Positions 1 to 18,000 of a stretch of 40,318 bases of DNA are shown here, one piece after another. Within the stretch, counting starts at the first letter, position 1; each line of letters starts with the position of its first letter. The notes below the pieces were generated by a model, which was not told the origin of the DNA, did no database searches, and was given only the letters and a program-made list of their open reading frames with translations. Location: positions 71,233 to 111,550 of the forward strand of contig JAVCCJ010000121.1 of NCBI GenBank assembly GCA_030765585.1, given 5' to 3'. The stretch is from Candidatus Zapsychrus exili (GTDB lineage: Bacteria > Omnitrophota > Gorgyraeia > Zapsychrales > Zapsychraceae). The position numbers and the translations under genes are program-made.

Positions 1-3000
1 AAAGATAGAGCTATACAAGAAGGAACATTGTCTGAAGATCCTGCAGATATATTAGAGAGAAAGATTGATAAGCTAGAAGCCTTAGAAGCACTTTATCAAG
101 AAAGATTAGCAATTCTTCAAGCAATAAATGCATTAGGGTTAAGCATTTATACAAATGATGTCGCAAACGATAGAGAAAAGATTATTGATTTTGAGAAGAA
201 GATGGCGCTTCAAGCATTAAAGACAGTTGAAGATAGAACAGGTTTAGATAAAGCTGCTCTTAAAGAAGTTTTAGGAAGCCTAACAGGGTTATTAAATGCT
301 GCACAAATGGAACTTATAGAGAAGCAAGAATATGCAAGGATAAAGAAAGAAACAGAAGCAGCATTAGAGAGCTTAGAAGATAAGTATACTGCTTATATAG
401 AATCTATTAGAGAATACAATAAATCATTAGAGGCAACTAAAGAAGAAATATTTAATAGCTATATAGCTACATTAGAAGGCGAAGAAATAGATGTTGATGT
501 TGTATTAGCATTTGAAGCGTTCTTTGTAAAATTGGAAAAATCAATGCCTGTCTTAGAGCAAATAGGAAATACAATTTATTATTACGGAAATTCAGTTGCT
601 AATTTGGTTACAATTGGCGGACAAAATTCTGCTGATATGAATGAATCGACTTGGACTAATGTTAAAGATGTTGAAGGTTTAAAGAAAATTATCAATAACT
701 CTCAACAATATTCTATATTTGATGAAAACTTCGAGATTTATTTTGGTACAGTTCAAGCAACAGTAGATGGCGCTAAAAACAATCGTTATTTTGTTATGAG
801 CATTCCTTTATCTGATAAAAATTCAACAGAGATATTACACAGATTTGCACTTGGTTCAATGCAAAGCTCATGGTTTGAAGTTGATGCAGCTACAATTATG
901 AATGAAGAGCCAAGTGTAGCAGCTAAAAAAGATCATGCTGTATTAATTATTGATACTTTTGGATATAAAGGCGACAAATTCTTCGCTGGTGTTGTAGGCG
1001 CGATGAAAGTTAGTACAAGCTCTGATAATGTAATAGCAGCTGTTGAAGGTATTTTAGATTATGAAATCTCAAGTAAAAGCAGACTTATCTTAGAACTTGG
1101 TTATGGATATGCATCTAAAGATGAAACAAGAACAGTAAAATTATATGATCCTATAACAAATCAAGAGATGTTTAGTGAAGATATAAGATTGTCAAATAGT
1201 GACAATTTTGATTCAGAAAAACTTACGTTTAGACATAGCTTTGGAGATAATGTTTCTCTTGATCTTGCCTTAAACAGAGTACATGAAGATGATTTTATGG
1301 ATATCTTTGAAGAGCAAACAGCTATATTCGGTTCAACTGGAATTCAAATGCATTTTGGAGAGTTCCAACTATCAGCAGAACAAGCATTTGATCATAAAGG
1401 CCTAGTTGATAGAAATGCGATAAAAGCTCGTTGGGGTAGAGTAAGTGGTGGGTTTGCTAATATAGAAGGAACACAAACTTATAATGCAGGAGTTGATGTT
1501 ATAAAGACTGATAAGAGCAGAGTTTACTTTGGATATAGAAAAGATGTAAGAGGAAACGATGCATTTAATTTGTCAGCTGCACATAGAGTATCTGATGGTA
1601 TCACATTAAATGGTGGGTTAAACACATCTGATGGAAAGAAATTCTTAGGCTCATTAGGTGCGACATTAGATTTAATTCGTTTTGGAAAGAGCAAAGATAA
1701 AGGCCCTCTTCTTTCTATCACAGTAGATAAAACAAAAGCAGATAATGAAATCTTCCCAGAAGGATTAGATCATAATGCAGCTGAAGGTGAGTATAGAGTA
1801 GAGATAGAAGGATATAAAGATATCTCAACTATTAAGAGCACAGAAGTTGTTGGAACAGATGATCAAGTTCAGTTCGGTTTAGAGGCTATGAAGATATCTC
1901 TTGAGAATATAATAGGTCGTTATATAAATGAGAATGTAGAGTTAGGTCGTGCTACTTTAGAATCACTATCTAACTTACCTGCAGCAAACATATTTGGTGG
2001 AGCAATATTCTTTGATGGTCAAATGCCAAAAGCATTAACAGGAAAAGAGATGAGCTTAGCAGTTAATATAGGTTCTGATGAAGCTCTTAATAGCCCATAT
2101 ATAGGATATTTAGGTGGAGCTGGATATTATTTAAGAGTACCTGTAAATGGAAGAATGCATAGTATATCTCTTGGAAACAGCTCAGAGGTTATGGTTATAT
2201 TACCAGAGACTTTAAGAAAATATTCTGATGTTACTGATATGACAAGCGAGTATCCAGTATTGGTTGAATCAAGCATTCCAACCGCAGAAAGAGTGGGACA
2301 TTATTTAAGTAATTATGGTTATATGTCAGTTGCAGGAGTTGGATTTGTTGAAATAACAGAGAACGTGATAAATGCTTTAACTGATGCAAGCGTATCTAAT
2401 GGAACGCTTCGTAATTGGGAAACGATACATAATCTTACATACAATGGAGCTGATCTAAGTGGAGCACATATTGAATATGGTCTTTTAGGAATATCAGCAT
2501 TTGAAGCTAGAGCAGACGCAAGATATGGCGTGCCAACAAAGAGCGGAGTTATTTATTTAACAGAAGCACAAGCAGATGCTAGAGCAGAAGAACTTGGATT
2601 AGCTTGGTCTCAAAAGTTAGGTTCAAGCGTTACTGATAATTATATTTTCTCAGTTCCTGCTCAAGGAATTGATTATGTGATAGCAGATGATATTTTTGTA
2701 GATACTTATAATAGAGAAAGAATAGCCGCTAAGTTGCCAAAGGATTATGTGGGTAAGAGTAAGTATATTTGGATAGATAATGCTGAAATTTCACGTGCTC
2801 ATGTTTTCACTTTGAAAAGCTTAGCAAAAGATTTTGATAATATAAGAAAAAATGCTGCTCATATTATGAGAATAGGCAGAAAAGGCAACACCATTGAAAG
2901 ATTCTATTTAGGCGCAGATTTCTGGAGCACAAAGGTAGAGATAATAGATAATAGCAAAAATTATAATAATATTTATGATATGGAAAATTATATTATTAAG

Positions 3001-6000
3001 GTTGGTCAGTTAGATACATTTAAGCAAGATCTTCAAAAAGAAGTAGATGTTCTACAAAAACAAATAGATGAAATTAATAGAAAGATAAATAGTGGAGTTA
3101 ATGATCCTGCTAAATCAAGGGCAGGCCATACAGAAGCAGATGTAAATAGAGAAGCAAGAGCTCTAATAACAAGCGGAGTTACATCTAACGCTAGCAGAGG
3201 TTGGGCAAAAGCAACTGAAAATGATAAGTGGGTTTCTGATGTAATTAAATATTACACAAAAATAAATTCAGAGGTTAAAGCTCAAAAATTAGATAGCCTT
3301 GTAGATGCAGGTTATGTAAGAGCAGGTCCAATGGTAACAGCTTATGGAGCAAACGTAATTGTTGCGAATAATGAATACGTACTTATTGCCACAAATGATA
3401 ACCCTTCAATGGATGCTACATTAGTACACGAATCTAATGGCGGCACTCACCTAGAAAATCTACAAGCAGAATTAGCTTATCTAGAAGCAAAATTAGGTCC
3501 TATACAAAGAAAATTAGTTGGTTTAGAAGCTACTAAAGAAGATAGTGATGCTGTTGTGTCAACAACATCTAAGACAGAAATAGATGTAGATGGTAATTTA
3601 CGCATAACAATTGCAAATATATTATGGAACACAGAAATAATAGAAATTCGTGATTCTAAAACAGGTAAGTTGATGAGAAAAGAACTGCCATTATCTAAAG
3701 AAATCGTACACTACGATGTTGAAACAGGGAATGAAACATATGTAACAGATTTAGATAATAAGGAAGGCATCGCACTTAATATAAATGGAACAATAGTAAG
3801 CAATGTAGTTGGAGTATTTAATATAGCAGAAACAATAGATTCTGTTGGTAATAACATTAAGATTGTTAGCTTTGTTAATACAAGAAGTTTCACAGATGCA
3901 ATTTTATCTGAATGTGACAATTATGCTTCAATAAGAAGAACCACGTATTATAGCGATGGTAGCATTTATAGAGATGAGACAGGTTTTACCACTATATTAA
4001 AACAAACTGAAAACACAGTAGAAGGTATGTTTGAGAATGTAAATGAGTATGATTTTAGAAATAGAGATACATATATAGACAGAGGATATGCTTTTCCTAC
4101 TAGAGAAGTTGAAACTAGGACAAATGGAGAATGGTTTAAGCTTCACGACATTATTAGAAAAGGGGATCTAAAACTAGAAGACATAGAAGTTATAGATTTT
4201 AATAAATTAATAGCAAATGAACCTATTTTTATAGCTTTTAATGCTTTAGGTATTGATTCTGCAACTATTCTTAATTTAACAGATGTAATAACCGTAGATG
4301 ATATACATACTTTCGATTTTAGAAAGCCATACGATCCTCAAGAAAGAAAAATAATCTCAGTTCGTCAGGAACAAGGACAAGTTATTGAGATAATTGTTGG
4401 CGTTGAATTTGATCCAAGAACAGGTGAGGTTGTTAAGTCTTATAAATTAACATCAGATTATCGAATAAAAGGTATGTTTGTAACAGAAAAAGAAAAGGTT
4501 AGAGCTGAAAAGATTTTCGGAGAATATAAAGAAGTTTATGCAAGTGCGGTTAATGATAGGTTCCCAGAGGAGTCATTAAATACATTAGAAAAATATCTTG
4601 AAGCCTCTGGAATTGCATTATGCTCTGATTTAATAGTTGTTAATGAGTATCCAGCGCTATTAGTTACAGACAATGAAACAAGTAACAGTACATATACAAA
4701 TATTTTTGGTAGAGCTCTTAAGCATTACTTAATTCCTAATGATAGCAGGGGTCGTGATATAGCGGTATTGTACCCTAGCAAAGATTTAGGTATTAATCTA
4801 TGGTCTTTTGAAGGAAGAGATATTAAAGTTCGTTATAACGGTGACGAGCCAAAAAGCTTTAAAACAAAAGTAGGTACAAATCCAGGTGTCATATCAGTAA
4901 ATGCTAACGAAAGAAATATGTTACAAGGTGTACAAATCTATAAAGCAGCTGATATAGAAGAAGAAGCATTTAACGTTGAGTTAAGAGGCAAAAATAAAGA
5001 AGGAGAGCTAAACAAGGGTGATGTTGTAGCAACAGTTACAGGCGGAAAAGGAGAAATGCTTAAAGTTAAATACGCAAATGGACTTAAGGTTGAAGGTTAT
5101 GAGTATTTAGTTCTTGATTCAAAATTTAAACGTAGCGTTGTTTATACTCTAGGTGGTCGATTATTAGCAGAGAAGTTTGCTTATGTGGTATCGCAAGTAG
5201 CCAAAAAAGAACTAAGTGTTGCAACCAACGGAGAAGAAATTATGATCTTTGATGTTTCTTCCCCTATTAGATTGCCTATACAGTCATATTTAATGAATGG
5301 AACTTTAGAAGACGGAACTGTATTAAAAGTCTTTGCGGATCAAGATTTCAGCATTGATTCAACAGGTGAGTTTAATAGACAAAAGAATGTGTTCGTAGTA
5401 AATGAAGCTGAAGGTTTAGCTCCAGATCAATTCTATTCGCACGAATATACGTATTTAGATGATGAACTGCAAAACAAATCTAGATATAAAATGTTTGAAC
5501 AATGGCTTAACCATACGCAAGCTTGGAGAATATTCGGAACTATCATTAGTGTCTACATTGGCATTGTAGTCCTTTCTGGATTAATAGCTCGTATTATTAA
5601 ACGTATAATTTTACGCTTTAGAGCTAACGACAAGAAAGCAGATCCTAACGTAGTACAAAAATATAGTCTTGATGATATAGAGAAATATGTAGCAACTATT
5701 GATGATTTTGCTGGATTTGGTTTTAATGAGGGAACAATAAAGCAGATAAAGAACAATCTTAAGGCTTTAATTGAAAGAAGATTAAAAGCAGGAGAGTCTT
5801 TTGAAGAGATATTTGGTGAATTCTTTGATAGATTTGTTAATGTTTGGTTTATTCCAGTTATGACAAAGAAAGTTGCTATAAAAAATGCAGATGGTAGCAA
5901 AGATAAGAAAACAAGCCTTTTATCTGATACAGAAGCTAAAGAAACATTAGAGAAAATAGGTTATGGATTAGACGGTAAACAAGATTTTGATGAAGATAAG

Positions 6001-6555
6001 ATTAATGAATATCTTAAGAATATGTATATTTATAATCTTGTTAATACGTCAGCGGATAAGCTTGCGCATGTAACGATGGTACATAACTACTTCTTCTATA
6101 AATCATTACAATGGAAAGACGGAGAAACACAAGGTAAAAATATTGATAGAAATAATTTTGGTCAACATTTAGTTGAAAAACATTATGATCTATGGTCAAT
6201 ATTATTATTGATAACAACAACAGCTTCTAAGTTTATAACAAAGCATAGCACTATTCATCAAAATGATGTTGAGGCATATTTTAAAACTCCAGGCTTTATA
6301 AGATTCTATGAAAATGGTGGAAGAAAAGCAATTAATGAGTATCTTGTTGATGCTGCTGTAGATATATTCGAAGCTTTTGATGGTGATAATTACAAGAAGT
6401 CAACAGCAGAGGCATTAAGACAAAATGCATATGATTATATAAGAAGTGGTTTCATGTTCTTAAAAAGCCAGCTAAAGGAAATGAAAAAGCAAAAAACAAG
6501 CAATAGAAAAAGCCTCTATAAACAAGATTTTGCCAAAAGCTTATCCAGACATTAA
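1..6555 (+). CDS. Giant multidomain protein, segment 1 (5' truncated): coiled coil, beta-barrel-like region, RAGP/HE module, beta-rich extracytoplasmic region, TM helix, FKS1 N-terminal domain
   Basis: Frame 1 is open from base 1 (aaa gat aga gct ata caa gaa gga aca ttg), so the TTG at 28 is probably not the start. The ORF runs over 2175 codons, and its last ~280 aa resemble the FKS1/callose synthase N-terminal domain, which continues in the next frame. Confidence 0.9.
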   Translation, partial: KDRAIQEGTLSEDPADILERKIDKLEALEALYQERLAILQAINALGLSIYTNDVANDREKIIDFEKKMALQALKTVEDRTGLDKAALKEVLGSLTGLLNAAQMELIEKQEYARIKKETEAALESLEDKYTAYIESIREYNKSLEATKEEIFNSYIATLEGEEIDVDVVLAFEAFFVKLEKSMPVLEQIGNTIYYYGNSVANLVTIGGQNSADMNESTWTNVKDVEGLKKIINNSQQYSIFDENFEIYFGTVQATVDGAKNNRYFVMSIPLSDKNSTEILHRFALGSMQSSWFEVDAATIMNEEPSVAAKKDHAVLIIDTFGYKGDKFFAGVVGAMKVSTSSDNVIAAVEGILDYEISSKSRLILELGYGYASKDETRTVKLYDPITNQEMFSEDIRLSNSDNFDSEKLTFRHSFGDNVSLDLALNRVHEDDFMDIFEEQTAIFGSTGIQMHFGEFQLSAEQAFDHKGLVDRNAIKARWGRVSGGFANIEGTQTYNAGVDVIKTDKSRVYFGYRKDVRGNDAFNLSAAHRVSDGITLNGGLNTSDGKKFLGSLGATLDLIRFGKSKDKGPLLSITVDKTKADNEIFPEGLDHNAAEGEYRVEIEGYKDISTIKSTEVVGTDDQVQFGLEAMKISLENIIGRYINENVELGRATLESLSNLPAANIFGGAIFFDGQMPKALTGKEMSLAVNIGSDEALNSPYIGYLGGAGYYLRVPVNGRMHSISLGNSSEVMVILPETLRKYSDVTDMTSEYPVLVESSIPTAERVGHYLSNYGYMSVAGVGFVEITENVINALTDASVSNGTLRNWETIHNLTYNGADLSGAHIEYGLLGISAFEARADARYGVPTKSGVIYLTEAQADARAEELGLAWSQKLGSSVTDNYIFSVPAQGIDYVIADDIFVDTYNRERIAAKLPKDYVGKSKYIWIDNAEISRAHVFTLKSLAKDFDNIRKNAAHIMRIGRKGNTIERFYLGADFWSTKVEIIDNSKNYNNIYDMENYIIKVGQLDTFKQDLQKEVDVLQKQIDEINRKINSGVNDPAKSRAGHTEADVNREARALITSGVTSNASRGWAKATENDKWVSDVIKYYTKINSEVKAQKLDSLVDAGYVRAGPMVTAYGANVIVANNEYVLIATNDNPSMDATLVHESNGGTHLENLQAELAYLEAKLGPIQRKLVGLEATKEDSDAVVSTTSKTEIDVDGNLRITIANILWNTEIIEIRDSKTGKLMRKELPLSKEIVHYDVETGNETYVTDLDNKEGIALNINGTIVSNVVGVFNIAETIDSVGNNIKIVSFVNTRSFTDAILSECDNYASIRRTTYYSDGSIYRDETGFTTILKQTENTVEGMFENVNEYDFRNRDTYIDRGYAFPTREVETRTNGEWFKLHDIIRKGDLKLEDIEVIDFNKLIANEPIFIAFNALGIDSATILNLTDVITVDDIHTFDFRKPYDPQERKIISVRQEQGQVIEIIVGVEFDPRTGEVVKSYKLTSDYRIKGMFVTEKEKVRAEKIFGEYKEVYASAVNDRFPEESLNTLEKYLEASGIALCSDLIVVNEYPALLVTDNETSNSTYTNIFGRALKHYLIPNDSRGRDIAVLYPSKDLGINLWSFEGRDIKVRYNGDEPKSFKTKVGTNPGVISVNANERNMLQGVQIYKAADIEEEAFNVELRGKNKEGELNKGDVVATVTGGKGEMLKVKYANGLKVEGYEYLVLDSKFKRSVVYTLGGRLLAEKFAYVVSQVAKKELSVATNGEEIMIFDVSSPIRLPIQSYLMNGTLEDGTVLKVFADQDFSIDSTGEFNRQKNVFVVNEAEGLAPDQFYSHEYTYLDDELQNKSRYKMFEQWLNHTQAWRIFGTIISVYIGIVVLSGLIARIIKRIILRFRANDKKADPNVVQKYSLDDIEKYVATIDDFAGFGFNEGTIKQIKNNLKALIERRLKAGESFEEIFGEFFDRFVNVWFIPVMTKKVAIKNADGSKDKKTSLLSDTEAKETLEKIGYGLDGKQDFDEDKINEYLKNMYIYNLVNTSADKLAHVTMVHNYFFYKSLQWKDGETQGKNIDRNNFGQHLVEKHYDLWSILLLITTTASKFITKHSTIHQNDVEAYFKTPGFIRFYENGGRKAINEYLVDAAVDIFEAFDGDNYKKSTAEALRQNAYDYIRSGFMFLKSQLKEMKKQKTSNRKSLYKQDFAKSLSRH
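940..1680 (+). other. Amphipathic beta-strand region, possible outer-membrane beta-barrel domain
   Basis: Alternating hydrophobic, Gly and aromatic strands with short turns: LILELGYGY, LTFRHSFGDNVSLDLAL, FGSTGIQMHFGEFQLSAE, TYNAGVDV, VYFGYRKD, FNLSAAHRVSDGITLNGGL, FLGSLGATLDL. Confidence 0.5.
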
Positions 6556-9500
6556 GACAACAAAATATGGATTCTTAGGTTGGGTTCGCATGATATCTCA
6601 ATTTAAATGGATTTTTGTAGTGCTTCATATGACTATTCTTCTTGCATCTTTTGGAGCTTCTCTAACACAACCAATACACACTGTTATTGCAAATAAAGAA
6701 TTGTTAGTAGCTGCGCTTAACAATTGGTATCCATACGCACTTGTTGCTTTAGGAGTTATAGCTTTTATTCAATTTGTTATTTGGTTAATAAATAAGAAAA
6801 CTAAGCAAAAAGATCTGTTAGAAAATCATTGGGGCGATATGGTTCTTCCTTCTGAAGGTAGAAACAAAGATCGCGTTGAAGGAACCGGCGCACGTAAAAC
6901 TAAATCAGCTTTCATAATGATGACAACATTAATTACTAAGCTTATTTTTAATGCATATATTTTCCAATGGATTGCTCCTGGTTTACAAGTTTTAGCAGAA
7001 AGCAATTGGCTTGTATCTTGGGGTGGATGGGCATTAGTTGCTGTCCCTGCATTATTTATGCTTATTGTTATGTTGCTAGATATTTTTGCTTACTTCTATA
7101 TAGTAGAAGGATTTTTAGGTTATGTTCTTGCAAAGTGGGAAGGAGTTAATCGTATTAAATCATGGAATAGATCAGCTGCGGGAACTGCTTTACGGAATAT
7201 ATCTATTATGACAGTTATAGGATTAGTAATTTTTATTCAGCCTCTTGATTTAAGCTTTGGTCAATGGATTATACAAAATCCTGTATACAACATTGCTGGA
7301 TTTGTCGTTGGTGGAGCTGTATTGTTAACAGTTGCCAATATTATTCTTAAGAGTTTTGGTATTTCTCAAATTGGTGGAGATACAGTATCAGAGATGTTTG
7401 AGAAAGCAGGAAAGAAATTCGAAGAAAATATACTTCCGCCATCTTATGTTAACAGAGCAGGGGTAAGACAAATATTAACTGGTGAACAAAGAAAAGTTGC
7501 TTGGGCAAAGGCATGGAACATGATTGTAAGGCAATATTTATTAGATGATTTAATCTCTATTGAAGAAGCCAAAATGATGATATTTGTTTTAGGTATAAGC
7601 GGAAAAGACGTTTCAGTAGATAAAGATACATCAAAGTTATCAGAAGATGAATTAAATAGTTTAGCAGGTATTGGACCTGACAAATATGATTTCTTGAATG
7701 GAAAAATCAAAAGATCGCCAGACTTAAGAAACATTAAGCCACGTAATAAACAAGTTCAATCTCGTATTAAATTCTTCTTATCTACTCTATTTATGGATAT
7801 AGACCAAACTCCTGTTTGGGAGAGAATGTATATGCTGACCACAGCTATGCCTCAGTTTGAAGAAGTTATTATGTATCCATTTAGTCAATATACTGTAGGC
7901 GAATATGATGGGCTTAATTCAAAATATAAAACAGGACATACATTCTTAACATATTTTATGAATAAGCATTCTTTAGAATGGGATAATTTCAGAGCAAGAT
8001 TAACGAGAGAAATCGAGCAAGAAAAAGATTTTATTAAGAAAGCTAAGAAGAAAGCTGATTTGATATTATTAAATAATCTTAAGCCTGGAGAGAAATTAGG
8101 AAATTATAATCCTGCAACTCTTGATTATGAAATGAATAGTATGGATATTCAACAAGAAGTACGCCTATGGTTGTCTTTTAGATATCAACCTTTAGCAAGA
8201 AGTATCCGCGGTATGATGAATAATCGTCAAATGTATGTATTTCTTGCAAAGGTTAATTTCCCAACAACTGGAAGCTTTATAAACAATAAGAATGAAATTG
8301 AATCAAAGATAGCAAAATATAAAACACAATCTTATGAACAAAATATTGATGAAATTGTTGATGCAAAATATGAATTCTTACCAGGTCTTCAAATTTATGG
8401 AGAATCAAAAGAAGCAGTAGTAAAGAACACAGAAGAAGGTAAGAGCAAATATCGTTTTTATAAAAATTATCTTATTTTTAATGATGCAAATTATCTGCTT
8501 AAGAAATATAAACATTTTAAAGCAGCTTATCTAATGATAGGCAAAAATAAGAGTGGTGGCGTTGTTCGTTATGCAGAAGAAAAGCCAGAAAATAAAGAAG
8601 ATATTTTCTATGAGTTTAGTGCAGAAGAAGGTGGTGGATATATAGTAAGAGATAGTTATATGCCGCTTTCAAGTCATCCATTCTCACTCCAAGGTAAGCC
8701 TATGAATCAAAGTAATATCTTAAGATTTGCTCGTGGCGAGATTGTCCAGATGATGGATATGAATCAAGATATGTATTTAGAAGAAACATTTAAAGCCCCA
8801 AGTTTGATGGAAGAATTTAGAAAACAATCACGTTTAGCAATCGTTGGCTATCCTGAAGATATTTTTACAGGTGTTTCTTCTCCTGCTGGTGCAGTTCACG
8901 CTTATGGTGATCACACATTTTCGACACTTATTCAGCGAGTACTTGATTTTGCAGGCGTTCGTTATCATTATGGTCACCCTGATTTTGTTAGAGCAATGTC
9001 CTTTAAACAACTTGGACTTTTAAGCCAACCATGGGTTAATGAAGATATTTTTGGAGCTTATAAGGGAACATTATATGGTGAAAAAGTTATAAATAGAGAA
9101 ATTATGCAAGCTGCTAAAGGTAGAGAGGGCGTTTATGCTGGCTTATTAGGAATTTCTGATAAATTTGGCGCTGGAGCTGGCGAACAATCTGTTTCTTTTG
9201 AAATTTCTTTACACAATACAAGTTCTGTTATTGGCTTTTCTAGACAGTTTATTCATTTTGTTGCTTCTATCGGATACTTTATAAGAAAACCACTTGTTGT
9301 TTTACAAAACAATCTTTACATTTTAACAGTTGTGCTTTTTGGTATTAGTTTCTTTGCAGCGTTTCCAGATGAATTGATTTTTGGTTTAATCGGATTATTA
9401 TTATCTCAAGCCATTACTGCAACAGGATACTTCCAACTTGTTATTGAAAATGGATTCCTTAGAGGAACATTGAAATTTATGAATGTTTTCCCTAAAGCTG

Positions 9501-9900
9501 CGGTTATCTATCAATCATTAGTTTATAATGCTTTTTCAACAGGTTTCCAGAAAGCTATGGTTAATAATGGAGATTATATTAAGACAGGACGTAGGCCAGG
9601 ACGCGACCACGTACATCCGTTTATGGATACAAAAGGAATAGAAGATCAAGGGCAACAAGATCTTTATTTCTTCTTAAATAAAGCTAATTTCCCTAAAGTT
9701 GTTTATGCCACTATTTTAGCTATAGTAGGTCTTTTCCTATGGCGATCATGGGGTAGCATTTGGTCGATTTTCCCTGTTCTTATGGTTTTTGCATCATTAA
9801 TGGCCCCAGTATTAATTAACCCTGGGTCTACGCCAGTTACAATTAGCACAAAAAGATGGTGGAAACAGCATAAAAGAGATGGTAAGAAGTTTGTTGAAAA
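5690..9900 (+). other. FKS1/callose synthase-like 1,3-beta-glucan synthase (GT48), spanning the frameshift
   Basis: Collinear motif matches to FKS/CalS consensus as recalled: FGFNEG (FGFQKD), HQNDVEAYF (NYDDLNEYF), AWNMIVRQYLLDDLIS (WNEIIxSFREEDLIS), RIKFFLSTLFMD (RISFFxNSLFMD), EWDNF, RLWLSFRYQPLARSIRGMM (RLWASYRGQTLxRTVRGMM), GKPMNQ at 8693 (GKPENQ), RGEIVQMMDMNQDMYLEE, RYHYGHPD at 8960, NEDIF with ED at 9041 (SEDIF), KGRE, KFGAGAGEQ, YIKTGR, APVLINP. Confidence 0.93.
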
Positions 9901-12900
9901 ACTTGGCAAAAATAGGATTATTCTTATAAGTGTTGCGTTTGCTTCAGTCTTTTTCATTGCTGGAGGTATTCCTTTCAAATTGATTTTTGCATTTGTGGGA
10001 TTATATTGGATATATAATGTGTCAAGAGAGGCTTTCGGAAAGAAATTTAAAGGGTCTAAGATGCATAAGTATGCAGAAGATTTAAATGGTTCAACTAGTT
10101 TAAGTTTCGCAGGAATAGCTACTATGTTCATTATGACTATTCTTGGAATTATTCTTACGCCTGTTGATTTAGTAATTCAACTTGCAACACGCATTTTCTC
10201 AGGTACAACATGGGCTAAGAATGTAAGAGCAAAAAGAATGGATAACAACGGAGATACTAAGGACGATTTAAGAGAAAGAGAAGTTGCAGCTGACATTAAT
10301 GCTATTAGAAGAGGATTTGCAAAGAAAAATCTAGAGCATTATATAAATAGCGACAATATTAGTGTTCTTTTAGAGCTACAAGGGGCTGTTAAAGGTCTAG
10401 ATGTTTATTTTCCTGGAGACAAAGAGTTTGTTGCGCCTAATAAACAAGCTAAGTCTGACCCAACACGTTCTTTACCAGGTACTACAATGCCTACAAAAGC
10501 CGAAGTTAATAAACATGATATAAGCAGATTTGAAGAGTTTGATGAGAGCTCAGAAGAAGTTAAGCGTACTGAACAAGCCTTACGCGCTAATGGCTATGCT
10601 GAGATGGCTGATCATTTAGTTTGGATGGCAAAAGCTGGTTTAGTGCGTGGCGGACCACTAGTAGGTTTCTTAGCAACTACTATTGTCATTCCTGCGCAGG
10701 CAGGAATCTCAGCAAAAGAATACGTCCTAATCTCTACAAATTATCCTACTTACAACACACTTACCGAAAGAGTATTAAGCTTAGCTCACGAAATAGGCGC
10801 AACAAGCAAGTTCAATCTATCTCATGAAGATAATACTATAAGAGAAGAAGCTATTAGTAAATGGCTTGTTTTGAACAAAACAATTAAAGCAAGCAAGTAT
10901 TACGAAAAAGCTAAAGATGTGTTACAGATTTCAATTGGAGTTTTAGTTTTAGTTGTTGGAGTAGCTGTTGGGGCTATAGGAACGGTAGGTTTCTTAGCTC
11001 TTTTAGGTCTTGGTGGATTTGTTTATTTAAGTAAAAAGATTTTTAGGCCGCTTGTAGGCGACATAACTTTTATCCGTGGCTGGAGGAAATTTAAGTCTCA
11101 AGCGGCTTCTTATTTTAATAAGGAGCTTGATGTAAAAACCAGATACGATTGGCTGTCATTCTTAGCTACTATTGCAATTGTTCTTGCCATTGATTATCTT
11201 CTTCATTTTGGAATTTCTATTGAAGGTCCTATAAATCAAGATAGTTTACTAGAAACTGTTTTGGCGTGGTGGAATCCTTTAAGAATATTAACTTTTTGGA
11301 TACTTTTCTTAGGAGCTTTTGTTTATAAAATGCCATTTGCTATTTTTTATGGGATATTCAACTTATCAACATTTTATATTTTCCCTGAGTCCTTTGCTGC
11401 TGGAACCTTTATGAGGAATTATGGTTATAATTTATTTTTTGATGTTATTCATTTCTCAACAGTATTATTAGTTGGTTATGAAACTTACAGCATAGTGCAA
11501 GACGATCTTAAACAAACAGGCTTTTATAAAGAGAAACTAGGGCCAGATTTCTTATATTCATTTAAGAAAATATCTATTTTTGCAATGTTTGCTTTAGCGT
11601 TTTTGACATTGGTTGAAATTGCGAAACCAGCCATTGAACCAATACATAAAATGTTTGTTTCTAGAGAAGCTGCTGATTTCTCTAGAGAGTTAACGGTCGA
11701 TATTGGCAATATTTTAGCTTATATGGGAGGTACTGTATTATCTGTAATCGTCTTAAATATATATTATCCAATATTTAAAGCAGTTGATCCCGTTGTTACT
11801 AGGACGATAAAACCTATTCATAGGTTTGCTCTTAAGAAGATTTATGGTAAGGAGTACGATACGGTTATGATTCAAAATTATTGGAGGAAATCATACGAAG
11901 ATGACGAAGAGAAAATTGGCAAAGGAGAAGGTTATAAAGTTGGAGATACAGTAGAGATTGATATAAAAAGTGGTGTAATGTCTCGCGTCGTAGAAGATGA
12001 TAAAGTTAAAGAAGATGCCCCTAATTCGTATCCAGCTCCATTTAGGCCAACAGATAGTGCGCAAAAAAGATATAAGGGCACTAGTTTTAAACTTTTAGCC
12101 GAACGTACAGCTCAAAAGAATCTTAGCTTTAAATTGATTGAAGGCTCTTTGAGCGAAGAACAGGAGGCTATTATTAGACAGATGTTTAATAAAATTCTTT
12201 GGCTTTCTCGTGCTCCTCCTGAATATAAATTTCATATTGTTTTCACTTCTGATTTTAAAGAAACGCAAAATTCTTTAGCAGCGTATCATTATTCAGATAA
12301 AATTCTTTATATTCATTTATTTGTTGTTGATAAATTAGTATCTTTATCGCAACCTGATCGGATTAAATTCCTAGTATTTTTAAAGAAAGTTGTTTTAAAG
12401 AACCATGAAATACATCATATAAAGGGAGAAGATGAACAAAAAGCTCAAAAGCTTACAATAGATTATTTCTTAGAAGATCTTGATGCAGCAGCCAATACGT
12501 TTAATTTGGTAAAAGAAAGAGCCATTTTTGAGCTTCGTTTTAGTAGAAGTTTCTTGAAGTTGATTCTTGAGCATAAGTCCTTGTACAGGGTTTTATCAGT
12601 TCAAAGAGCAAGCTTTAAGAGCGTTATTGTGAATTTTAATGTACCTGAAGTTTTTAGTGTTACAAAAACAAAGCCAACAAAAGTTATCCTTTCTTTAAAT
12701 AGTGTATTCTTACCTGTATTCTTAACTATTTCTTCAGATTCTACTTTCCCACTTTTAGTTAAAATGGGCGACAATTTAGTGTTTGTTATTGTCGCCGCAG
12801 CTGCTCTCTTAACCATTGGATATCTTATAAGTTATTTTGTTTATAGAAAAAATAAATCTTCTTCAAACATCGAGAATTCAGATGATACTAAAGACTCTCA

Positions 12901-14815
12901 TTTTGTTGTTGGACCTTTATTATTAGCAGATTATTCAGATGGGGCTGTTGAAGCTTCTGAAATATCTACGAAACAAAGAACAGATCGCATTATTGAAAGA
13001 GTCCAAGAAGGGGCTGAATCTTTTAAAGCAACGGGTAATATTAGCGATGTTGCAACATTGACCTCCTTACATAAGCAATTCTACGAAACTCAAGATCAGA
13101 GAGTTATTGCGTCATTAATCAATAAAAAGGTGATTATTAATACTTACAAAGGAAGGCTAGTTGATAGAAAGTCTTATGCGCGGTTTGCAGAAGATGATCT
13201 TATACGTCTTGTTTTAGATAAGCAGTCTAAGGTAAAAGAACATTTATTTGTAAAAGACTTTTCTGGGTACAAGAAAGGCAATGGTGTTTCTTTTGATTGC
13301 ATAGTACGAAAATATGATGATAGAGAAAGAATATCTTATGTTGCTTCAGAAGATATGGGTAAATTTGTTGAAGATGAAAAAGTTGTAGAAATTCTAACAA
13401 AAAAGAAATATGGCGCTAATAGAGTTTTTGTAGAGAAAGGACTTCTTAAAAGACTATTGACCAGAAAAAGTTTAGTTTTAGGGATATCATCTGAGACAGG
13501 CAATATAGTTTACCTTGATTCAAGATATGTCAATAGTAACCCATATCGTATTTTCAGACAAAATTGGCATATAAATAATATTTTAAAATATTTTGAGAAT
13601 GACAAAAGTGATCATTATAAACAACGGTTAAAAGATGCGTTTACTGTAGCGAGAACATTTTATGAAAAAGGTAGTAATACAGGTATTAAAAAGAAGAAGA
13701 GCAAAATTGTAGTAAAGCCTTTATTCAAGAATATGGACGAGGTCATTGAGTTTCTTTATGTAATAATCAATACTTTTGGAACTCAATATTCTGCAGATTT
13801 CTTTATTTCAGGTATTTTGTTAGGTCTTTCACAGGATTATTTAGGCGCTTTCTCTAAGGATAATATATTGAATACTATAAGAGCATCTCAGAGCGCATTA
13901 GCGCAGAACTTTGATACGGATGTTATGAAAAGTGATAATCGTTATGTAGATAAATATATGAAAATGATAATAAAGCAGTTTGATGAGAATTTAAATGCGT
14001 TACAGTTAACGGTCTTATATAAGTATTACGAATTTATTAATAACGAGAATGAAGACTTTGATTTATATAATGATGAGATAATTCTTATTTGGGTAAATAT
14101 AGCTGAAGCGATTAATTGGAAGACAATCGTTAAAGCTATAAAAGATTTTGTGGGTACAACAGATAATGAGGATATTATTAAAGTTAAATCAGAATATAAT
14201 AAAGCTATTGGTATGGCCGTAAAAGAGTTAAAGCAATTAATGATTAATATAAAAAATGAGCTTCAGGCAAGAATTAATGAAAAAGGAATAAAGGCAGAGG
14301 TAAAGATAGATGAAAAGGATTATCTTGGTATGGCTCGTGAAATTTACTTTTCAGATTCGCGCAAGGGAAGTGATAAGAAATATGAACATGTTTGGGATTT
14401 AGACGATTTAGCTCGCATGAGAATTGTTACTGATTCTGACGCTGATAATCTTCATCTGGAATATGATGCTTTGGCTATTGTTCTAGATTTTATGAAAAGC
14501 AAAGGCATTAAGTTTATAGGCAATGAAGATGCTCTTATTTATAAGAGAAAATATGGTTTTGAATCAAATGATACAATTTACCAATTAAATAAGCTATTAA
14601 GATTGGAAGTTCAGATTATGTCAAAAGATTCAGAAAATGAAGCAGATCATGGAAAGATAGGACGTGTTTCTTATGAATTAGGAGTTAGAGGGCAAAAGAC
14701 AGAAGATCCTGTATTCTTACCAAATATTAGTAAAGATGAAAGCTCAGAAAATCTTCTTAAGAACTTAAAAGAGTATGTAAAAGCGCACGATATTATAAAC
14801 AATATATATGTTTAA
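6485..14815 (+). CDS. Giant multidomain protein, segment 2: GT48 1,3-beta-glucan synthase, RGGP and RAPP/HExxH modules, TM bundles, RelA/SpoT synthetase-like domain
   Basis: Frame 2 is open from 6485 (after TGA at 6482) and reads KSKKQAIEKASINKILPKAYPDIK. The ORF-track TTG at 6530 has no clear Shine-Dalgarno. The segment ends at TAA 14813-14815 at the start of a TGS-like domain. Confidence 0.9.
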   Translation, partial: KSKKQAIEKASINKILPKAYPDIKTTKYGFLGWVRMISQFKWIFVVLHMTILLASFGASLTQPIHTVIANKELLVAALNNWYPYALVALGVIAFIQFVIWLINKKTKQKDLLENHWGDMVLPSEGRNKDRVEGTGARKTKSAFIMMTTLITKLIFNAYIFQWIAPGLQVLAESNWLVSWGGWALVAVPALFMLIVMLLDIFAYFYIVEGFLGYVLAKWEGVNRIKSWNRSAAGTALRNISIMTVIGLVIFIQPLDLSFGQWIIQNPVYNIAGFVVGGAVLLTVANIILKSFGISQIGGDTVSEMFEKAGKKFEENILPPSYVNRAGVRQILTGEQRKVAWAKAWNMIVRQYLLDDLISIEEAKMMIFVLGISGKDVSVDKDTSKLSEDELNSLAGIGPDKYDFLNGKIKRSPDLRNIKPRNKQVQSRIKFFLSTLFMDIDQTPVWERMYMLTTAMPQFEEVIMYPFSQYTVGEYDGLNSKYKTGHTFLTYFMNKHSLEWDNFRARLTREIEQEKDFIKKAKKKADLILLNNLKPGEKLGNYNPATLDYEMNSMDIQQEVRLWLSFRYQPLARSIRGMMNNRQMYVFLAKVNFPTTGSFINNKNEIESKIAKYKTQSYEQNIDEIVDAKYEFLPGLQIYGESKEAVVKNTEEGKSKYRFYKNYLIFNDANYLLKKYKHFKAAYLMIGKNKSGGVVRYAEEKPENKEDIFYEFSAEEGGGYIVRDSYMPLSSHPFSLQGKPMNQSNILRFARGEIVQMMDMNQDMYLEETFKAPSLMEEFRKQSRLAIVGYPEDIFTGVSSPAGAVHAYGDHTFSTLIQRVLDFAGVRYHYGHPDFVRAMSFKQLGLLSQPWVNEDIFGAYKGTLYGEKVINREIMQAAKGREGVYAGLLGISDKFGAGAGEQSVSFEISLHNTSSVIGFSRQFIHFVASIGYFIRKPLVVLQNNLYILTVVLFGISFFAAFPDELIFGLIGLLLSQAITATGYFQLVIENGFLRGTLKFMNVFPKAAVIYQSLVYNAFSTGFQKAMVNNGDYIKTGRRPGRDHVHPFMDTKGIEDQGQQDLYFFLNKANFPKVVYATILAIVGLFLWRSWGSIWSIFPVLMVFASLMAPVLINPGSTPVTISTKRWWKQHKRDGKKFVEKLGKNRIILISVAFASVFFIAGGIPFKLIFAFVGLYWIYNVSREAFGKKFKGSKMHKYAEDLNGSTSLSFAGIATMFIMTILGIILTPVDLVIQLATRIFSGTTWAKNVRAKRMDNNGDTKDDLREREVAADINAIRRGFAKKNLEHYINSDNISVLLELQGAVKGLDVYFPGDKEFVAPNKQAKSDPTRSLPGTTMPTKAEVNKHDISRFEEFDESSEEVKRTEQALRANGYAEMADHLVWMAKAGLVRGGPLVGFLATTIVIPAQAGISAKEYVLISTNYPTYNTLTERVLSLAHEIGATSKFNLSHEDNTIREEAISKWLVLNKTIKASKYYEKAKDVLQISIGVLVLVVGVAVGAIGTVGFLALLGLGGFVYLSKKIFRPLVGDITFIRGWRKFKSQAASYFNKELDVKTRYDWLSFLATIAIVLAIDYLLHFGISIEGPINQDSLLETVLAWWNPLRILTFWILFLGAFVYKMPFAIFYGIFNLSTFYIFPESFAAGTFMRNYGYNLFFDVIHFSTVLLVGYETYSIVQDDLKQTGFYKEKLGPDFLYSFKKISIFAMFALAFLTLVEIAKPAIEPIHKMFVSREAADFSRELTVDIGNILAYMGGTVLSVIVLNIYYPIFKAVDPVVTRTIKPIHRFALKKIYGKEYDTVMIQNYWRKSYEDDEEKIGKGEGYKVGDTVEIDIKSGVMSRVVEDDKVKEDAPNSYPAPFRPTDSAQKRYKGTSFKLLAERTAQKNLSFKLIEGSLSEEQEAIIRQMFNKILWLSRAPPEYKFHIVFTSDFKETQNSLAAYHYSDKILYIHLFVVDKLVSLSQPDRIKFLVFLKKVVLKNHEIHHIKGEDEQKAQKLTIDYFLEDLDAAANTFNLVKERAIFELRFSRSFLKLILEHKSLYRVLSVQRASFKSVIVNFNVPEVFSVTKTKPTKVILSLNSVFLPVFLTISSDSTFPLLVKMGDNLVFVIVAAAALLTIGYLISYFVYRKNKSSSNIENSDDTKDSHFVVGPLLLADYSDGAVEASEISTKQRTDRIIERVQEGAESFKATGNISDVATLTSLHKQFYETQDQRVIASLINKKVIINTYKGRLVDRKSYARFAEDDLIRLVLDKQSKVKEHLFVKDFSGYKKGNGVSFDCIVRKYDDRERISYVASEDMGKFVEDEKVVEILTKKKYGANRVFVEKGLLKRLLTRKSLVLGISSETGNIVYLDSRYVNSNPYRIFRQNWHINNILKYFENDKSDHYKQRLKDAFTVARTFYEKGSNTGIKKKKSKIVVKPLFKNMDEVIEFLYVIINTFGTQYSADFFISGILLGLSQDYLGAFSKDNILNTIRASQSALAQNFDTDVMKSDNRYVDKYMKMIIKQFDENLNALQLTVLYKYYEFINNENEDFDLYNDEIILIWVNIAEAINWKTIVKAIKDFVGTTDNEDIIKVKSEYNKAIGMAVKELKQLMINIKNELQARINEKGIKAEVKIDEKDYLGMAREIYFSDSRKGSDKKYEHVWDLDDLARMRIVTDSDADNLHLEYDALAIVLDFMKSKGIKFIGNEDALIYKRKYGFESNDTIYQLNKLLRLEVQIMSKDSENEADHGKIGRVSYELGVRGQKTEDPVFLPNISKDESSENLLKNLKEYVKAHDIINNIYV
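11380..11770 (+). other. Multi-TM domain, weakly VanZ-like
   Basis: FDVIHF...LVEIAKP...SRELTVDIGNILAYMGGTVL resembles the VanZ-like pattern (DKxxHF...E.xQ...R..D..D...N..G). Confidence 0.3.
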
Positions 14816-15000
14816 TTTAAGATTGGAGATGAAGGGGTTAATATTGTAACTTTGCCTGAAGGGTCTATTGTCGCTGATTTATTGGCACATTTTAGAGTTA
14901 ACTATTTTGGCAATAATGTAGAAATGAAAAGTCTAGAATCGTATAACAAACTTGGCTTAAGATCTGTTTTAAAAAATGGTCAATTAGTTTATATAAAGAA
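14200..15000 (+). other. RelA/SpoT (p)ppGpp synthetase-like domain plus TGS domain, interrupted by an in-frame TAA
   Basis: DLDDLARMRIV, KYGFESNDT, LEVQIMS, EADHG...SYE match the RSH synthetase motif order. Then IYV*FKIG...TLPEGSIVADL...LKNGQLVYI matches TGS (IYVFTPxG...LPxGATPxDF...LxNGDxVEI). Confidence 0.8.
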
Positions 15001-18000
15001 ATTGAGCGGCAAGATGCCAGGCATGAGTAGGTTGAAATATCATGATATGAAAAGCTATAGAGGAAAGTTGAAATGGACAGAATTTAGTAAGCCTTCTGAT
15101 AAAAAAGATGCAACAGTTAAAGGCAAACAAATGCTAGAGAAAGCTACTAAAGTTTTGTTTGCTGGCAAGAGAGAAAAAGAAAGATTGAGAATTTTATCTG
15201 ACGTTGTAAGTAAGATAGGGTTTAAATTCTCTGGGGCTAATGATTTGGCTGAGCTTTATAGGGCAATTTATTTTGAAGCATTAACAGTGGATGAAGCGTC
15301 AGATTTTATTGTGAAAGCACAAAATAAGATTAAAAGGTATATTCCTTATGCTGCAGGCGAAGAAGGAAAGGACGACAAGAAGACTAATATGAATGCGTTT
15401 AATCCTTTATTATTATTAGGTTTAAATAGTTTTGTTTCAGGTGAGATGTTGTTGGCTGTAGGTGTATTATCAATAATTGCAATTGTGGCATGGTTTGTAT
15501 TAAGAAGAAGCTCTCCTGCATTAAGCAATATTTCACGTCTTTTTATTTTGATATTCAAGAAAGCGCTACCTTATAAGTTTAATAAGGAAACGGCACATAA
15601 AAGAAGTATTGAGGGAGAAGATAATGTTATTAAAGATAAGTCATCTGAGAAATTTTCTAATATGTTTGATACCTCTGATAATTTACTTAGAGCTCTTGAT
15701 GATCAAGGTATTTATCGGTTAATTAGTTTGGTAAAACGCTTTAGAAAAGAAGCTTTGAATACGTTGCTTAGTCCTTTAAGCAGAGGCGATTTCTTCAGTC
15801 GTGTCAAAATAGCTGTCAGTAATTTTAAGTTTATGTCTCAACTTTCAGATAGTAAAGATAAAAAATATGGAGGTGTTAATTGGGATAGATGTATTTTGGC
15901 AACACTTTTCTGTAGCAATCTTGGTTTTATTGCGTTTGGAAAAGATGGAGAAGTTAAGCAAGAGTTTGAAGATATTGTTCAATGGGATTTTAAAAGAGAA
16001 AATAGAATCATTAAAAATACTGCTCCATATCTTTCTCTTGCGGGGCTTGAAACTTATCGTAGACAGTATATTTCAGACTTAAAACATGTTTATATTTCAG
16101 AATATATAGCTAGAACTAAGATTTTTGAGTCAAAATTGTTTAGAAATGTTTTTACAGAAAAAGAGAAAAAGATTATTAGTTTTCTTATTTGGTATCATCA
16201 TACGCTAATTGAGTTAGCTGGATATGGTGCTCTTAAGGATCAAGCAGATTTAAGTGTTATGCTTAGAGATATTTTAGACGTCTCAAATAGCACAGGATTA
16301 TCTAAAAAAGAATTATTGGATATGCTTTATGCTGCTACTTTGTCTGATTCTTTTTTAAAAGGAAAAACAAAAGCTGTTGGTCTTAACACAGCAGCTAAAA
16401 AGACAATGTTAGGAATAATAGATGTATTAAATGAAGAGTATACCGAGGATAGCGCTAGCATAGAAGTCGTTAAGAAATTATGTGAAGATAAAATATTAAA
16501 TCAAATAAGAGAGTTGCGATCAGAGCCAGACGCAATCTTTACAGAGCATCTTGCAGAGATGATAAAACACAAAACTTACGATGAGATAAGACCTCTTGTT
16601 GAAGCATATAAGCTTGCATCTTGGGGTTATTTTGGAGCGAGAAGACAAGAAAAGTTTGATTCATTAGAAGGCAAAAAAATGAGAAGGTCCGTTATTGTTC
16701 ACGCAGTAAGAACATTGCGTCATCATATTACCTATGATGTTGAGACAAATATAATAAAAATTCTTCATGATATCTTTGAAGATACAGAAATCCCAGAGGA
16801 AATTATAGAAGAAATATTTGGCAAAGACATTCTCTATTGTTTGCAATTATTAAATAAGAAGAGAATCGAAGCTAAATTATCCTTAGGCATAAAACTGTAT
16901 TTTATAGAGACAATATATAGATGGAAGCTTATAGCCAAGCAGCGCATGGATATATTCTATGAGAAGTATGGTTTTTATTATAATGAGAAACAATATGCAT
17001 ATTATATGGCAATTCTTTTTTCCTACGGAGGCTATAAAACACAATTAGCAAAGTGTGCTGATTTGGTAGATAATTTCTTAACTATTGCTGCCAAGCGGAA
17101 TAAAAGTGGACTATTAGCAAAATATGCAGGAATTGCAATACCGTTTATTATTGAGATGTCTATTTTGAATAAAGAAGATAAGCATGAATTTTTAAACAAT
17201 TTGCTTAAAGGCATAACAATCTTGTTAAAGCAAAGAGATATAGATGCAGGGCTTATTAAACAATGTGAACAGTTTAGAAAGACTGTTCATTATTATAGGA
17301 ATTTTATTGAAAATGATAGTAAGAAAATAGAATCTGTTTCGTTGATACAAAAGTTTCTTTATGGGAGAAGCAAAACTGTTAAATCTTTTATAAAGATATT
17401 TGGTATTGCTGTTCCACTTTTTAGCGTTTATGCAAGAAGGATTGTAAGGTATATATTGCCTTATATTTTCATTGATAATTTAAAGAAGGAGTATAGGTCG
17501 GATACTTTAGGTCGTACGCGAGTGCTTATTAAAGGAAATAGTCTTTATATAACAGGAAAACGCAGAATGCTCTGGATTTTATTGCGCTTTATAACAGTAT
17601 TTATTATAAATAAAACAATTAGGACTATATTTACAGGCGTTTTAGAAGAAAAAGACGTGTCTTATCTCTCTGTTAGGAAAATTAAGAAATCGCATAGAAG
17701 CATATTTGACGCTAACTTGTTGAGTGTGAGTCCTATTCTTTTATTGGATTCTAATTTCGTTATTTTAGCTGTAATCTTTTTTATATCTTACAGAATATTT
17801 AATCATTATTTAAGCAATGCGCCGCCTATAAAGGTAAAAGGTAAAAGGCAAAGTGTAAAAGATTATAAATTAAAGCCGTTAGAGCAAATAGTAATACAAT
17901 TCTTATCTGACTTATTCCGTGGCTGGTACCGCAGAATAAATTCTGCGTGGGGGAGGATAAGAATTTCTGCTCTAACGGTTTTTTCTTATGACAATAGGTT

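Follow-up and report, generated by a model that had tools for sequence, protein, structure and literature searches.

Beta-1,3-glucan synthases of the FKS/callose type (family GT48) produce callose in plants, storage glucans in algae and the walls of fungi, and echinocandin antifungals are directed against them. In this work, a module of this family was analyzed in a bacterium, Candidatus Zapsychrus exili of the phylum Omnitrophota, where it is encoded within an array of giant open reading frames (ORFs). The stretch of DNA studied, hereafter the window, has 40,318 nucleotides and corresponds to positions 71233-111550 of a contig of 111,550 bases (JAVCCJ010000121.1). Window positions 5542-10126 carry a bacterial GT48 cassette that, judging from its sequence and models, probably acts as an Fks1-like synthase-translocase, with a beta-1,3-glucan as the most likely product. 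Omnitrophota are widespread tiny bacteria, probably host-dependent. In their available parts, the papers on GT48 present it as a family of fungi, plants and protists.

The best structural match is to the fungal synthases Fks1 and Fks2 (PDB 9wy1, 9wzs, 8jzn and 7xe4), which have the same order of parts as the window: an accessory domain, six transmembrane (TM) helices, a GT-A glycosyltransferase domain and a second TM block. Sequence identity to them is about 20-22%, and neither FKS1_dom1 nor FKS1_dom2 matches the window. Unlike Fks1, the module is part of a giant bacterial protein, in which a large conserved region and a membrane anchor come before it. The plant callose synthases (CalS/GSL) and the algal and protist GT48 enzymes belong to the same family and share the catalytic motifs of the window, with 24-26% BLAST identity over 550-730 residues. 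They are stand-alone proteins of about 1,800-2,300 amino acids (aa) that carry FKS1_dom1 and in some cases Vta1, and in the tree described below they fall in the fungal clan, opposite the prokaryotic rows.

The cellulose synthase BcsA (GT2) resembles the module in its general fold, with a GT-A domain sitting above a TM channel, and in coupling synthesis to export, but it belongs to another family, the window has no PilZ domain, and the structural Z score of BcsA is half that of Fks1. The region upstream of the module recalls BcsB, with its periplasmic part and single anchor beside the synthase, as an analogy only. The curdlan synthase CrdS (GT2), NdvB and Cgs are, like the proposed enzyme, inner-membrane beta-glucan synthases that use UDP-glucose; they are GT2 or GT84 enzymes, not GT48. 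Cgs, the cyclic beta-1,2-glucan synthase, is a multidomain protein of about 2,800 aa whose structure (8rfe_A) scores Z 12.4 against the core model of the window.

Giant proteins of the same phylum have been described as very long, TM-anchored multi-enzyme ORFs with sugar-metabolism modules, among which the available text of two preprints lists GT5, GT1, starch synthase and phosphoglucomutase domains (West-Roberts et al. 2023, 10.1101/2023.11.21.568195; a 2026 preprint, 10.64898/2026.06.07.730766). The terms "GT48", "FKS", "callose" and "glucan synthase" are absent from the main texts of both; their supplements, not covered here, may list PF02364. A literature search returned no paper linking GT48 or glucan synthase with Omnitrophota, Elusimicrobia or prokaryotes, and two papers on GT48 evolution describe no bacterial GT48 in their available parts. 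Automatic Pfam annotation already flags PF02364 in Omnitrophota proteins; a description in print of the deep bacterial GT48 branch could not be found.

Catalytic module and predicted architecture

The protein encoded by ORF2 (P0002) matches Pfam PF02364 (Glucan_synthase) with residues 404-937 (window 7739-9340) at E 2.1e-60. The score was 205.3 bits versus a cut-off of 37.2, with coverage of profile positions 3-508 of 819 only. P0001, encoded by ORF1, gave no Pfam match at E <= 0.01, and the module gave none to the GT2 model Glyco_trans_2_3 at the same threshold. When P0002 was searched against PDB sequences, the sole matches were six distinct FKS1/GSC2 sequences (best E 2.4e-28). A previous sequence-only reading had proposed an FKS/callose synthase embedded in a bacterial giant protein with its catalytic motifs intact, and both proposals hold, since all five motifs (GKPMNQ, DMNQD, YGHPD, NED and KGR) are found in P0002.

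For the active site, yeast Fks1 numbering was transferred to P0002 through the PDB-search alignment, with the residue list of PMC10499315. The available text of that paper lists putative active-site residues whose mutation leads to loss of function, and gives as mutation-sensitive E851, K1082, D1102/N1104, E1155, H1195, N1220/E1221, D1222, K1246/R1248 and K1261. Twelve of the 15 listed active-site residues are identical in P0002, E1173 is replaced by D, and D1080 and K1172 differ (Table 1). Every residue for which mutation revealed a requirement in yeast Fks1 is identical. Conservation was followed in an alignment of 40 rows, with 27 bacterial sequences (the window and 26 Omnitrophota loci) and 13 eukaryote-like proteins. 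K1082, D1102, N1104, E1155, H1195, E1221, D1222, K1246, R1248 and K1261 are invariant in all of them, and E851 is kept in 39 rows, the remaining one being gapped.

The core was modeled with AlphaFold as P0002 1-1200 (1,200 residues) on the same 40-row alignment. The model reached a mean pLDDT (predicted local distance difference test) of 82.6 and a pTM (predicted TM-score) of 0.86, and the GT-A domain was mostly above pLDDT 90. In a Foldseek search against the PDB, the 13 best matches were all Fks1/Fks2 cryo-EM structures (E 3e-28 to 1e-17, 1208-1324 alignment columns, query TM-score 0.37-0.56), followed by BcsA at E 1e-8 over about 400-500 columns. Superposition with VIA-align placed model residues 5-1140 on Fks1 437-1673 (9wy1_A) with Z 29.3 and a root-mean-square deviation (rmsd) of 4.6 Å over 758 aligned residues, while BcsA gave Z 14.4 with about 490 aligned. 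As modeled, the core has an Fks1-like fold, with the GT-A domain between two TM blocks. The collinear N-domain, TM block, catalytic domain and second TM block that had been read from motifs are thus reproduced by the structure prediction and the alignment to Fks1.

According to the available text of PMC12715860, Fks1 has an accessory domain at 146-442, followed by TM1-6, a GT domain from 713 to about 1290, and 17 helices in total; by this layout and the alignment, the window contains counterparts of TM1-6 and of the GT domain, followed by some six or seven more helices. The predicted helices of the first block (P0002 15-44, 56-91, 120-156, 165-204, 216-235 and 251-275) align to Fks1 from residue 437 on. 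Those of the second block are placed at 903-937, 948-974, 976-1010, 1054-1071, 1080-1095, 1127-1144 and 1150-1199, with low confidence after residue ~1145 and pLDDT < 50 after 1163. Similarity of the relatives to P0002 stops at residues 1135-1249, and further hydrophobic segments at 1377-1741 are not conserved in most of them. The extent first proposed for the module, 5690-9900, was adjusted at both ends: on sequence and models, the cassette starts at 5542 (anchor) or 5662 (accessory domain) and ends at about 10126.

The N-terminal part of the cassette lies at the end of ORF1, where a soluble domain of about 300 residues follows a TM anchor, the sole segment over the Kyte-Doolittle threshold in the 2184 residues. 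The AlphaFold model of window 5638-6552 (pLDDT 82.0, pTM 0.80) superposed with its residues 9-235 on Fks1 150-434 (9wy1_A) at Z 10.9 and rmsd 3.2 Å over 186 residues. The three Fks1 entries scored Z 10.8-11.6 in VIA-align, and all other entries 3.5 or less. Foldseek gave no N-domain match at E <= 0.001; Fks1 was ranked fourth with E 1.1, yet with by far the best TM-score (0.43). A comparison with eukaryotic N-termini by hhalign was weak (E 0.0029, probability 10.7%, 178 columns). Since Foldseek returned no N-domain match at that threshold, the assignment relies on VIA-align together with the weak hhalign signal.

Pfam FKS1_dom1 (PF14288) did not match the window at E <= 0.01, nor any of 25 bacterial N-domain segments (the window and 24 homologous segments from relatives) at E <= 1, and it matched 21 of 23 eukaryote-like proteins. 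Of the two profiles expected by the sequence-only reading, PF02364 was therefore found and PF14288 was not, and for the N-domain the fold alone fits. This domain is read as the Fks1 accessory domain from its modeled fold and its position before TM1. The accessory and synthase parts adjoin in one frame in relatives, and BLAST detects the accessory part at 12 of 26 loci.

Table 1. Features of the window, with the P0002 counterparts of the Fks1 active-site residues.
Feature	Protein position	Window position	Strand	Basis or remark
ORF1 (P0001)		1-6555	+	2184 aa, 5' end open
Conserved region before anchor	ORF1 ~1218-1847	3652-5541	+	collinear with relatives
Single TM anchor	ORF1 1848-1873	5542-5619	+	Kyte-Doolittle scan
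Accessory (AC, N-terminal) domain homologue, predicted	C-terminal end of ORF1	5662-6342	+	AlphaFold model, VIA-align
A-rich tract, ORF1/ORF2 frame change		6483-6497	+	frame analysis
ORF2 (P0002)		6530-14815	+	2761 aa
First TM block, six helices, predicted	P0002 15-275	6572-7354	+	AlphaFold model
Cytoplasmic GT-A glycosyltransferase domain, predicted	P0002 286-900	7385-9229	+	PF02364 match, model
Motif GKPMNQ	P0002 722-727	8693-8710	+	motif
Motif DMNQD	P0002 743-747	8756-8770	+	motif
Motif YGHPD	P0002 814-818	8969-8983	+	motif
Motif NED	P0002 837-839	9038-9046	+	motif
Motif KGR	P0002 863-865	9116-9124	+	motif
Second TM block, about six/seven helices, predicted	P0002 903-1199	9236-10126	+	AlphaFold model
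In-frame TAA between ORF2 and ORF3 (same frame)		14813-14815	+	frame analysis
ORF3		14852-38500	+	7882 aa
Fourth, ordinary ORF		38632-40161	+	509 aa
Active-site E851 (Fks1)	E445 (P0002)
Active-site D1080 (Fks1)	Q721 (P0002)
Active-site K1082 (Fks1)	K723 (P0002)
Active-site D1102 (Fks1)	D743 (P0002)
Active-site N1104 (Fks1)	N745 (P0002)
Active-site E1155 (Fks1)	E776 (P0002)
Active-site K1172 (Fks1)	G793 (P0002)
Active-site E1173 (Fks1)	D794 (P0002)
Active-site H1195 (Fks1)	H816 (P0002)
Active-site N1220 (Fks1)	N837 (P0002)
Active-site E1221 (Fks1)	E838 (P0002)
Active-site D1222 (Fks1)	D839 (P0002)
Active-site K1246 (Fks1)	K863 (P0002)
Active-site R1248 (Fks1)	R865 (P0002)
Active-site K1261 (Fks1)	K878 (P0002)

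Occurrence and phylogeny of prokaryotic GT48 modules

The nearest proteins are annotated as "hypothetical protein" from Omnitrophota/Omnitrophica, and their precomputed Pfam domains include PF02364. The family profile matched 7 of 41 close relatives, 43 of 401 genomes across Omnitrophota (37 above the Pfam cut-off) and, among these 401, 41 of the 341 of high quality, with no match in 14 control genomes. Open frames with the module reach 74,522 aa, some of them on single-contig chromosomes.

A GTDB-wide scan with two sequence motifs, covering one genome per species for 185,579 prokaryotic species, confirmed 46 loci; with two motifs, divergent members in other phyla may be missed. The loci comprised 28 labelled Omnitrophota or Omnitrophica, 12 Planctomycetales/Planctomycetia, two unclassified bacteria, three Endomicrobiaceae and one contig binned as Methanosarcinales. 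At least six of the 12 Planctomycetales/Planctomycetia loci sit on contigs of the phylum of the window (Omnitrophota in the GTDB grouping), and therefore the public labels look outdated. In the Endomicrobiaceae loci (L054, L055, L056) and the Methanosarcinales-bin locus (L078), the module lies in frames of 9030, 3691, 5756 and 7954 aa. The catalytic-core profile matched 1394 cluster representatives, from all domains of life together, at E <= 0.001 among 1.84 billion, 370 of them at E <= 1e-30. The prokaryotic GT48 branch is old and patchily distributed, occurring in Omnitrophota and also in Endomicrobiaceae.

The main tree was built from 80 GT-domain sequences over 492 columns (LG+C20 PMSF, quick search), with support from the Shimodaira-Hasegawa-like approximate likelihood ratio test (SH-aLRT) only. 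Rows with fewer than 440 profile positions, P0034 and near-duplicates were left out beforehand. Eukaryote-like rows were labelled by source names for some and by FKS1_dom1 for 21 of 23; P0032 has neither. These 23 rows stand on one side of a branch (SH-aLRT 99), and the 57 prokaryotic rows form several deep clades that are not nested in fungal or plant clades, so that the bacterial copies were not captured recently from fungi or plants. The divergent bacterial GT48 lineage anticipated from the window alone is thus recovered both in the tree and in the genome counts.

The window groups with G005, G314, G034 and G036. Endomicrobiaceae rows nest within its larger clade (100), and the row from the Methanosarcinales bin is sister to one from Omnitrophota (97). 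This nesting of modules from outside Omnitrophota among Omnitrophota rows suggests transfer between phyla, with mis-binning as the other possibility for the archaeal-bin locus.

The GT2 model Glyco_trans_2_3 matched six of the 27 bacterial modules at E <= 0.01 (L025, L035, L012, L014, L034 and L033), of which only L033 was above the cut-off, at 36.1 bits, and none of the 23 eukaryote-like proteins. From their sequences, these six look like intermediates between GT2 and GT48. In a genome of the same family, a frame of 951 aa (L009, G005:C5:3241-4509) weakly matched both Glucan_synthase (E 5.6e-5) and Glyco_trans_2_3 (E 1.6e-5), and may be another such intermediate or a degenerate copy.

Rooting was attempted with 11 GT2 sequences as outgroup over 199 columns (quick search, SH-aLRT only). 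In the free tree, the root fell inside the bacterial rows with the eukaryotes nested. It is tempting, yet doubtful, to propose that GT48 arose in bacteria from GT2-type synthases and that the eukaryotic FKS/callose synthases descend from a module of an Omnitrophota-type giant protein that an early eukaryote acquired in a single transfer. The several deep prokaryotic clades, the uneven GT2-profile matches and the rooted nesting are hints in favor of this scenario. Against it, a constrained tree with all prokaryotic rows in one clade was 16.6 log-likelihood units better and was not rejected by the approximately unbiased (AU) test (p-AU 0.73), and long-branch attraction could explain the rooted topology.

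Probable function and alternative explanations

The cassette is predicted to consist, in order, of a single anchor, a cytoplasmic accessory domain, six TM helices, the GT-A domain and six or seven further helices. Its mode of action would most likely be that of Fks1 and the cellulose synthases. The cytoplasmic domain would transfer glucose from UDP-glucose onto the growing chain end. The chain, most likely a beta-1,3-glucan, would be driven along a channel that runs between the two blocks of helices and would emerge on the outer side of the inner membrane. An active processive synthase-translocase is expected because the catalytic set is conserved, the channel-forming helices are Fks1-like and the frames are open; donor and linkage are presumed from the family. 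At the outer face, the polymer may be handled by the large conserved region that this giant protein carries directly ahead of the cassette. The module would have to be regulated otherwise than fungal Fks1, which Rho1 controls; to our knowledge, a Rho1-type regulator is not to be expected in bacteria. The fungal echinocandin hot-spot sequences, compared as motif patterns, are not conserved in bacterial or plant rows, and therefore sensitivity to caspofungin is not expected.

With regard to donor supply, the genome contains two UDPGP-family matches above the Pfam cut-off (G000:C119:8443-9012 and G000:C83:7495-8268), which lie inside frames of 1758 and 2027 aa on other contigs. UDPGP is the eukaryote-type UDP-sugar pyrophosphorylase family, and its search gave no match in 14 control prokaryotes. 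For the synthesis of beta-1,3-glucan from UDP-glucose (EC 2.4.1.34), these genes would be the only indirect support. No match to GH16 was found in the genome.

Several observations weigh against this explanation. The GalU equivalog gave eight weak matches in the genome, none above the cut-off. GH94 was considered as a specific link to GT48 and dropped: it is present here but also in 356 of the 401 phylum genomes, and is therefore uninformative about GT48. The last ~150-200 residues of Fks1, with its final TM helices, have no confident counterpart in the model, about 12-13 helices being modeled versus 17 in Fks1 and the structural alignments ending at Fks1 residues 1511-1746. The enzyme had been called complete; both TM blocks, the GT domain and the accessory fold bear this out, and, with no confident counterpart of these final helices, the word is slightly too strong. 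Two published active-site positions are changed in the window (D1080 to Q, K1172 to G), although neither is constant in the eukaryote-like rows (D/E/N and K/Q/A, respectively), and identity to characterized GT48 enzymes is only 20-27%, so that linkage and donor cannot be read from the sequence. Finally, the accessory domain and the synthase are in different frames in this assembly, the frame at the A-rich tract is different again in a second assembly, and this particular copy may be split or broken.

As a separate observation, many GH94 domains of the phylum lie in frames of about 2,850-2,970 aa, a size that recalls the cyclic beta-1,2-glucan synthases.

The low identity and the two substitutions would fit an active processive synthase of the FKS fold that makes a different polymer, be it with another linkage, a mixed-linkage or cyclic glucan, or from another UDP-sugar. 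The donor-side position D1080 is variable in the bacterial rows (Q/E/K/A/I), and the product-side position K1172 is G or A in 23 of the 27. The six bacterial modules that also match Glyco_trans_2_3 point the same way, as GT2 enzymes make many polymers, and the UDPGP family found in the genome presumably also includes UDP-GlcNAc enzymes. Nevertheless, such a product appears rather unlikely. The residues proposed for acceptor-glucose binding and transfer catalysis are invariant, and the module in the window itself does not match the GT2 model. We know of no GT48 enzyme of known product that makes anything other than beta-1,3-glucan, and the available parts of GT48 papers on fungi, plants and diatoms agree with this product.

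The reading frame raises the question of whether the copy in the window is inactive, a decaying remnant in this strain in which the frame change severs the accessory domain from the synthase. The frameshift noticed in the sequence-only reading does exist in this assembly, with the stop codon of ORF1 at 6553-6555 and an ORF2 frame open from position 6485 onward, giving an overlap of 6485-6555. In three relatives (G034, G036 and G005), the end of ORF1 and ORF2 are contiguous in one frame, and the homologous single-frame stretch ends ...INK/INR I(L/I)PK.(Y/F)PDIKT. Contigs of three public runs were compared over window 5600-15100; no RNA run is listed as containing the stretch. One contig of run X1 is shorter by a single A at 6488 and again at 6491, and likewise fails to join the two ORFs. 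These differences may reflect population heterogeneity, slippage at the tract or an assembly error.

A broken copy is nevertheless improbable. The two parts are open for 2184+ and 2761 codons with no further stops, and the catalytic residues are all intact. The change falls inside two A-runs, where errors or slippage are likeliest, within a linker of poor conservation, the deviating contig has a depth of just 3.4, and two polypeptides could still assemble.

A non-bacterial stretch, whether contaminating DNA of a eukaryote or virus, part of a chimeric contig or a piece captured very recently from a fungus or plant, is highly improbable and already refuted as far as present data go: beyond the facts that GT48 is otherwise known from eukaryotes and that the metagenome bin has no recovered 16S, no evidence for it was found, whereas gyrB/gyrA and pilus genes on the same contig, the Omnitrophota homologues (some on single-contig chromosomes), independent contigs from two runs covering the region, uniform GC content, the absence of introns and the position of the prokaryotic rows outside fungal and plant clades all speak against it. 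Overall, the interpretation first made from the sequence is supported.

Locus setting and significance

The window has on its + strand three very long frames and one ordinary frame. The GC content is even throughout (0.31-0.35), and the frames are open for thousands of codons; the AT-rich style shared with the flanks and the lack of introns had both been remarked on before. The genome (2.04 Mb in 129 contigs) has a completeness of 96.25% and a contamination of 0.68%; a 16S rRNA gene was searched for and not found in it. The first 35 kb of the contig hold ordinary genes, namely the end of gyrB, gyrA and a Tad/type IV pilus locus (secretin, ATPase and membrane genes), all recognized by eye in the translations. 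Contig positions 37451-109732 (72 kb) hold four successive frames of 9937, 3548, 2776 and 7894 codons, not one, owing to two frame changes and one in-frame TAA. The TAA is backed by an independent contig of run X1 (window 14187-15100) with zero differences. The contig is bacterial, and the GT48 module is part of this giant-ORF array, with the very long frames, TM anchors and mixed enzyme modules by which giant proteins of Omnitrophota genomes are recognized.

The region before the anchor is 31-34% identical to relatives (ORF1 1218-2118 versus L011 and 1226-1866 versus L013). Similarity of the closest relatives reaches ORF1 ~1200, and in three of these it appears again at residues 2-836. The region gave no Pfam match, and a search of the ESM Atlas with window 3598-5550 gave no usable match. 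No partner domain recurs beside the cassette in the six relatives examined. By analogy, this region would lie outside the cytoplasm, because a single anchor helix follows it and the accessory domain is cytoplasmic in Fks1.

ORF3 contains an unusual mixture of Pfam domains: a HAD hydrolase, a phosphoribosyltransferase, a PRPP-synthetase N-terminal domain, FAD_binding_4 with FAD-oxidase_C (an FAD-linked oxidase), and two CrcB-like fluoride-channel stretches.

A deep prokaryotic branch makes the origin of GT48 testable, including its link to the GT2 cellulose-synthase-like enzymes, and the intron-free bacterial homologues are usable for biochemistry and structural work. The module also points to an undescribed glycan made by Omnitrophota, and, as predicted from sequence and models, it would assign a defined enzymatic role to one portion of their enigmatic giant proteins. 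If the product is a beta-1,3-glucan, the module would represent a second bacterial route to it, unrelated to CrdS, NdvB and Cgs.

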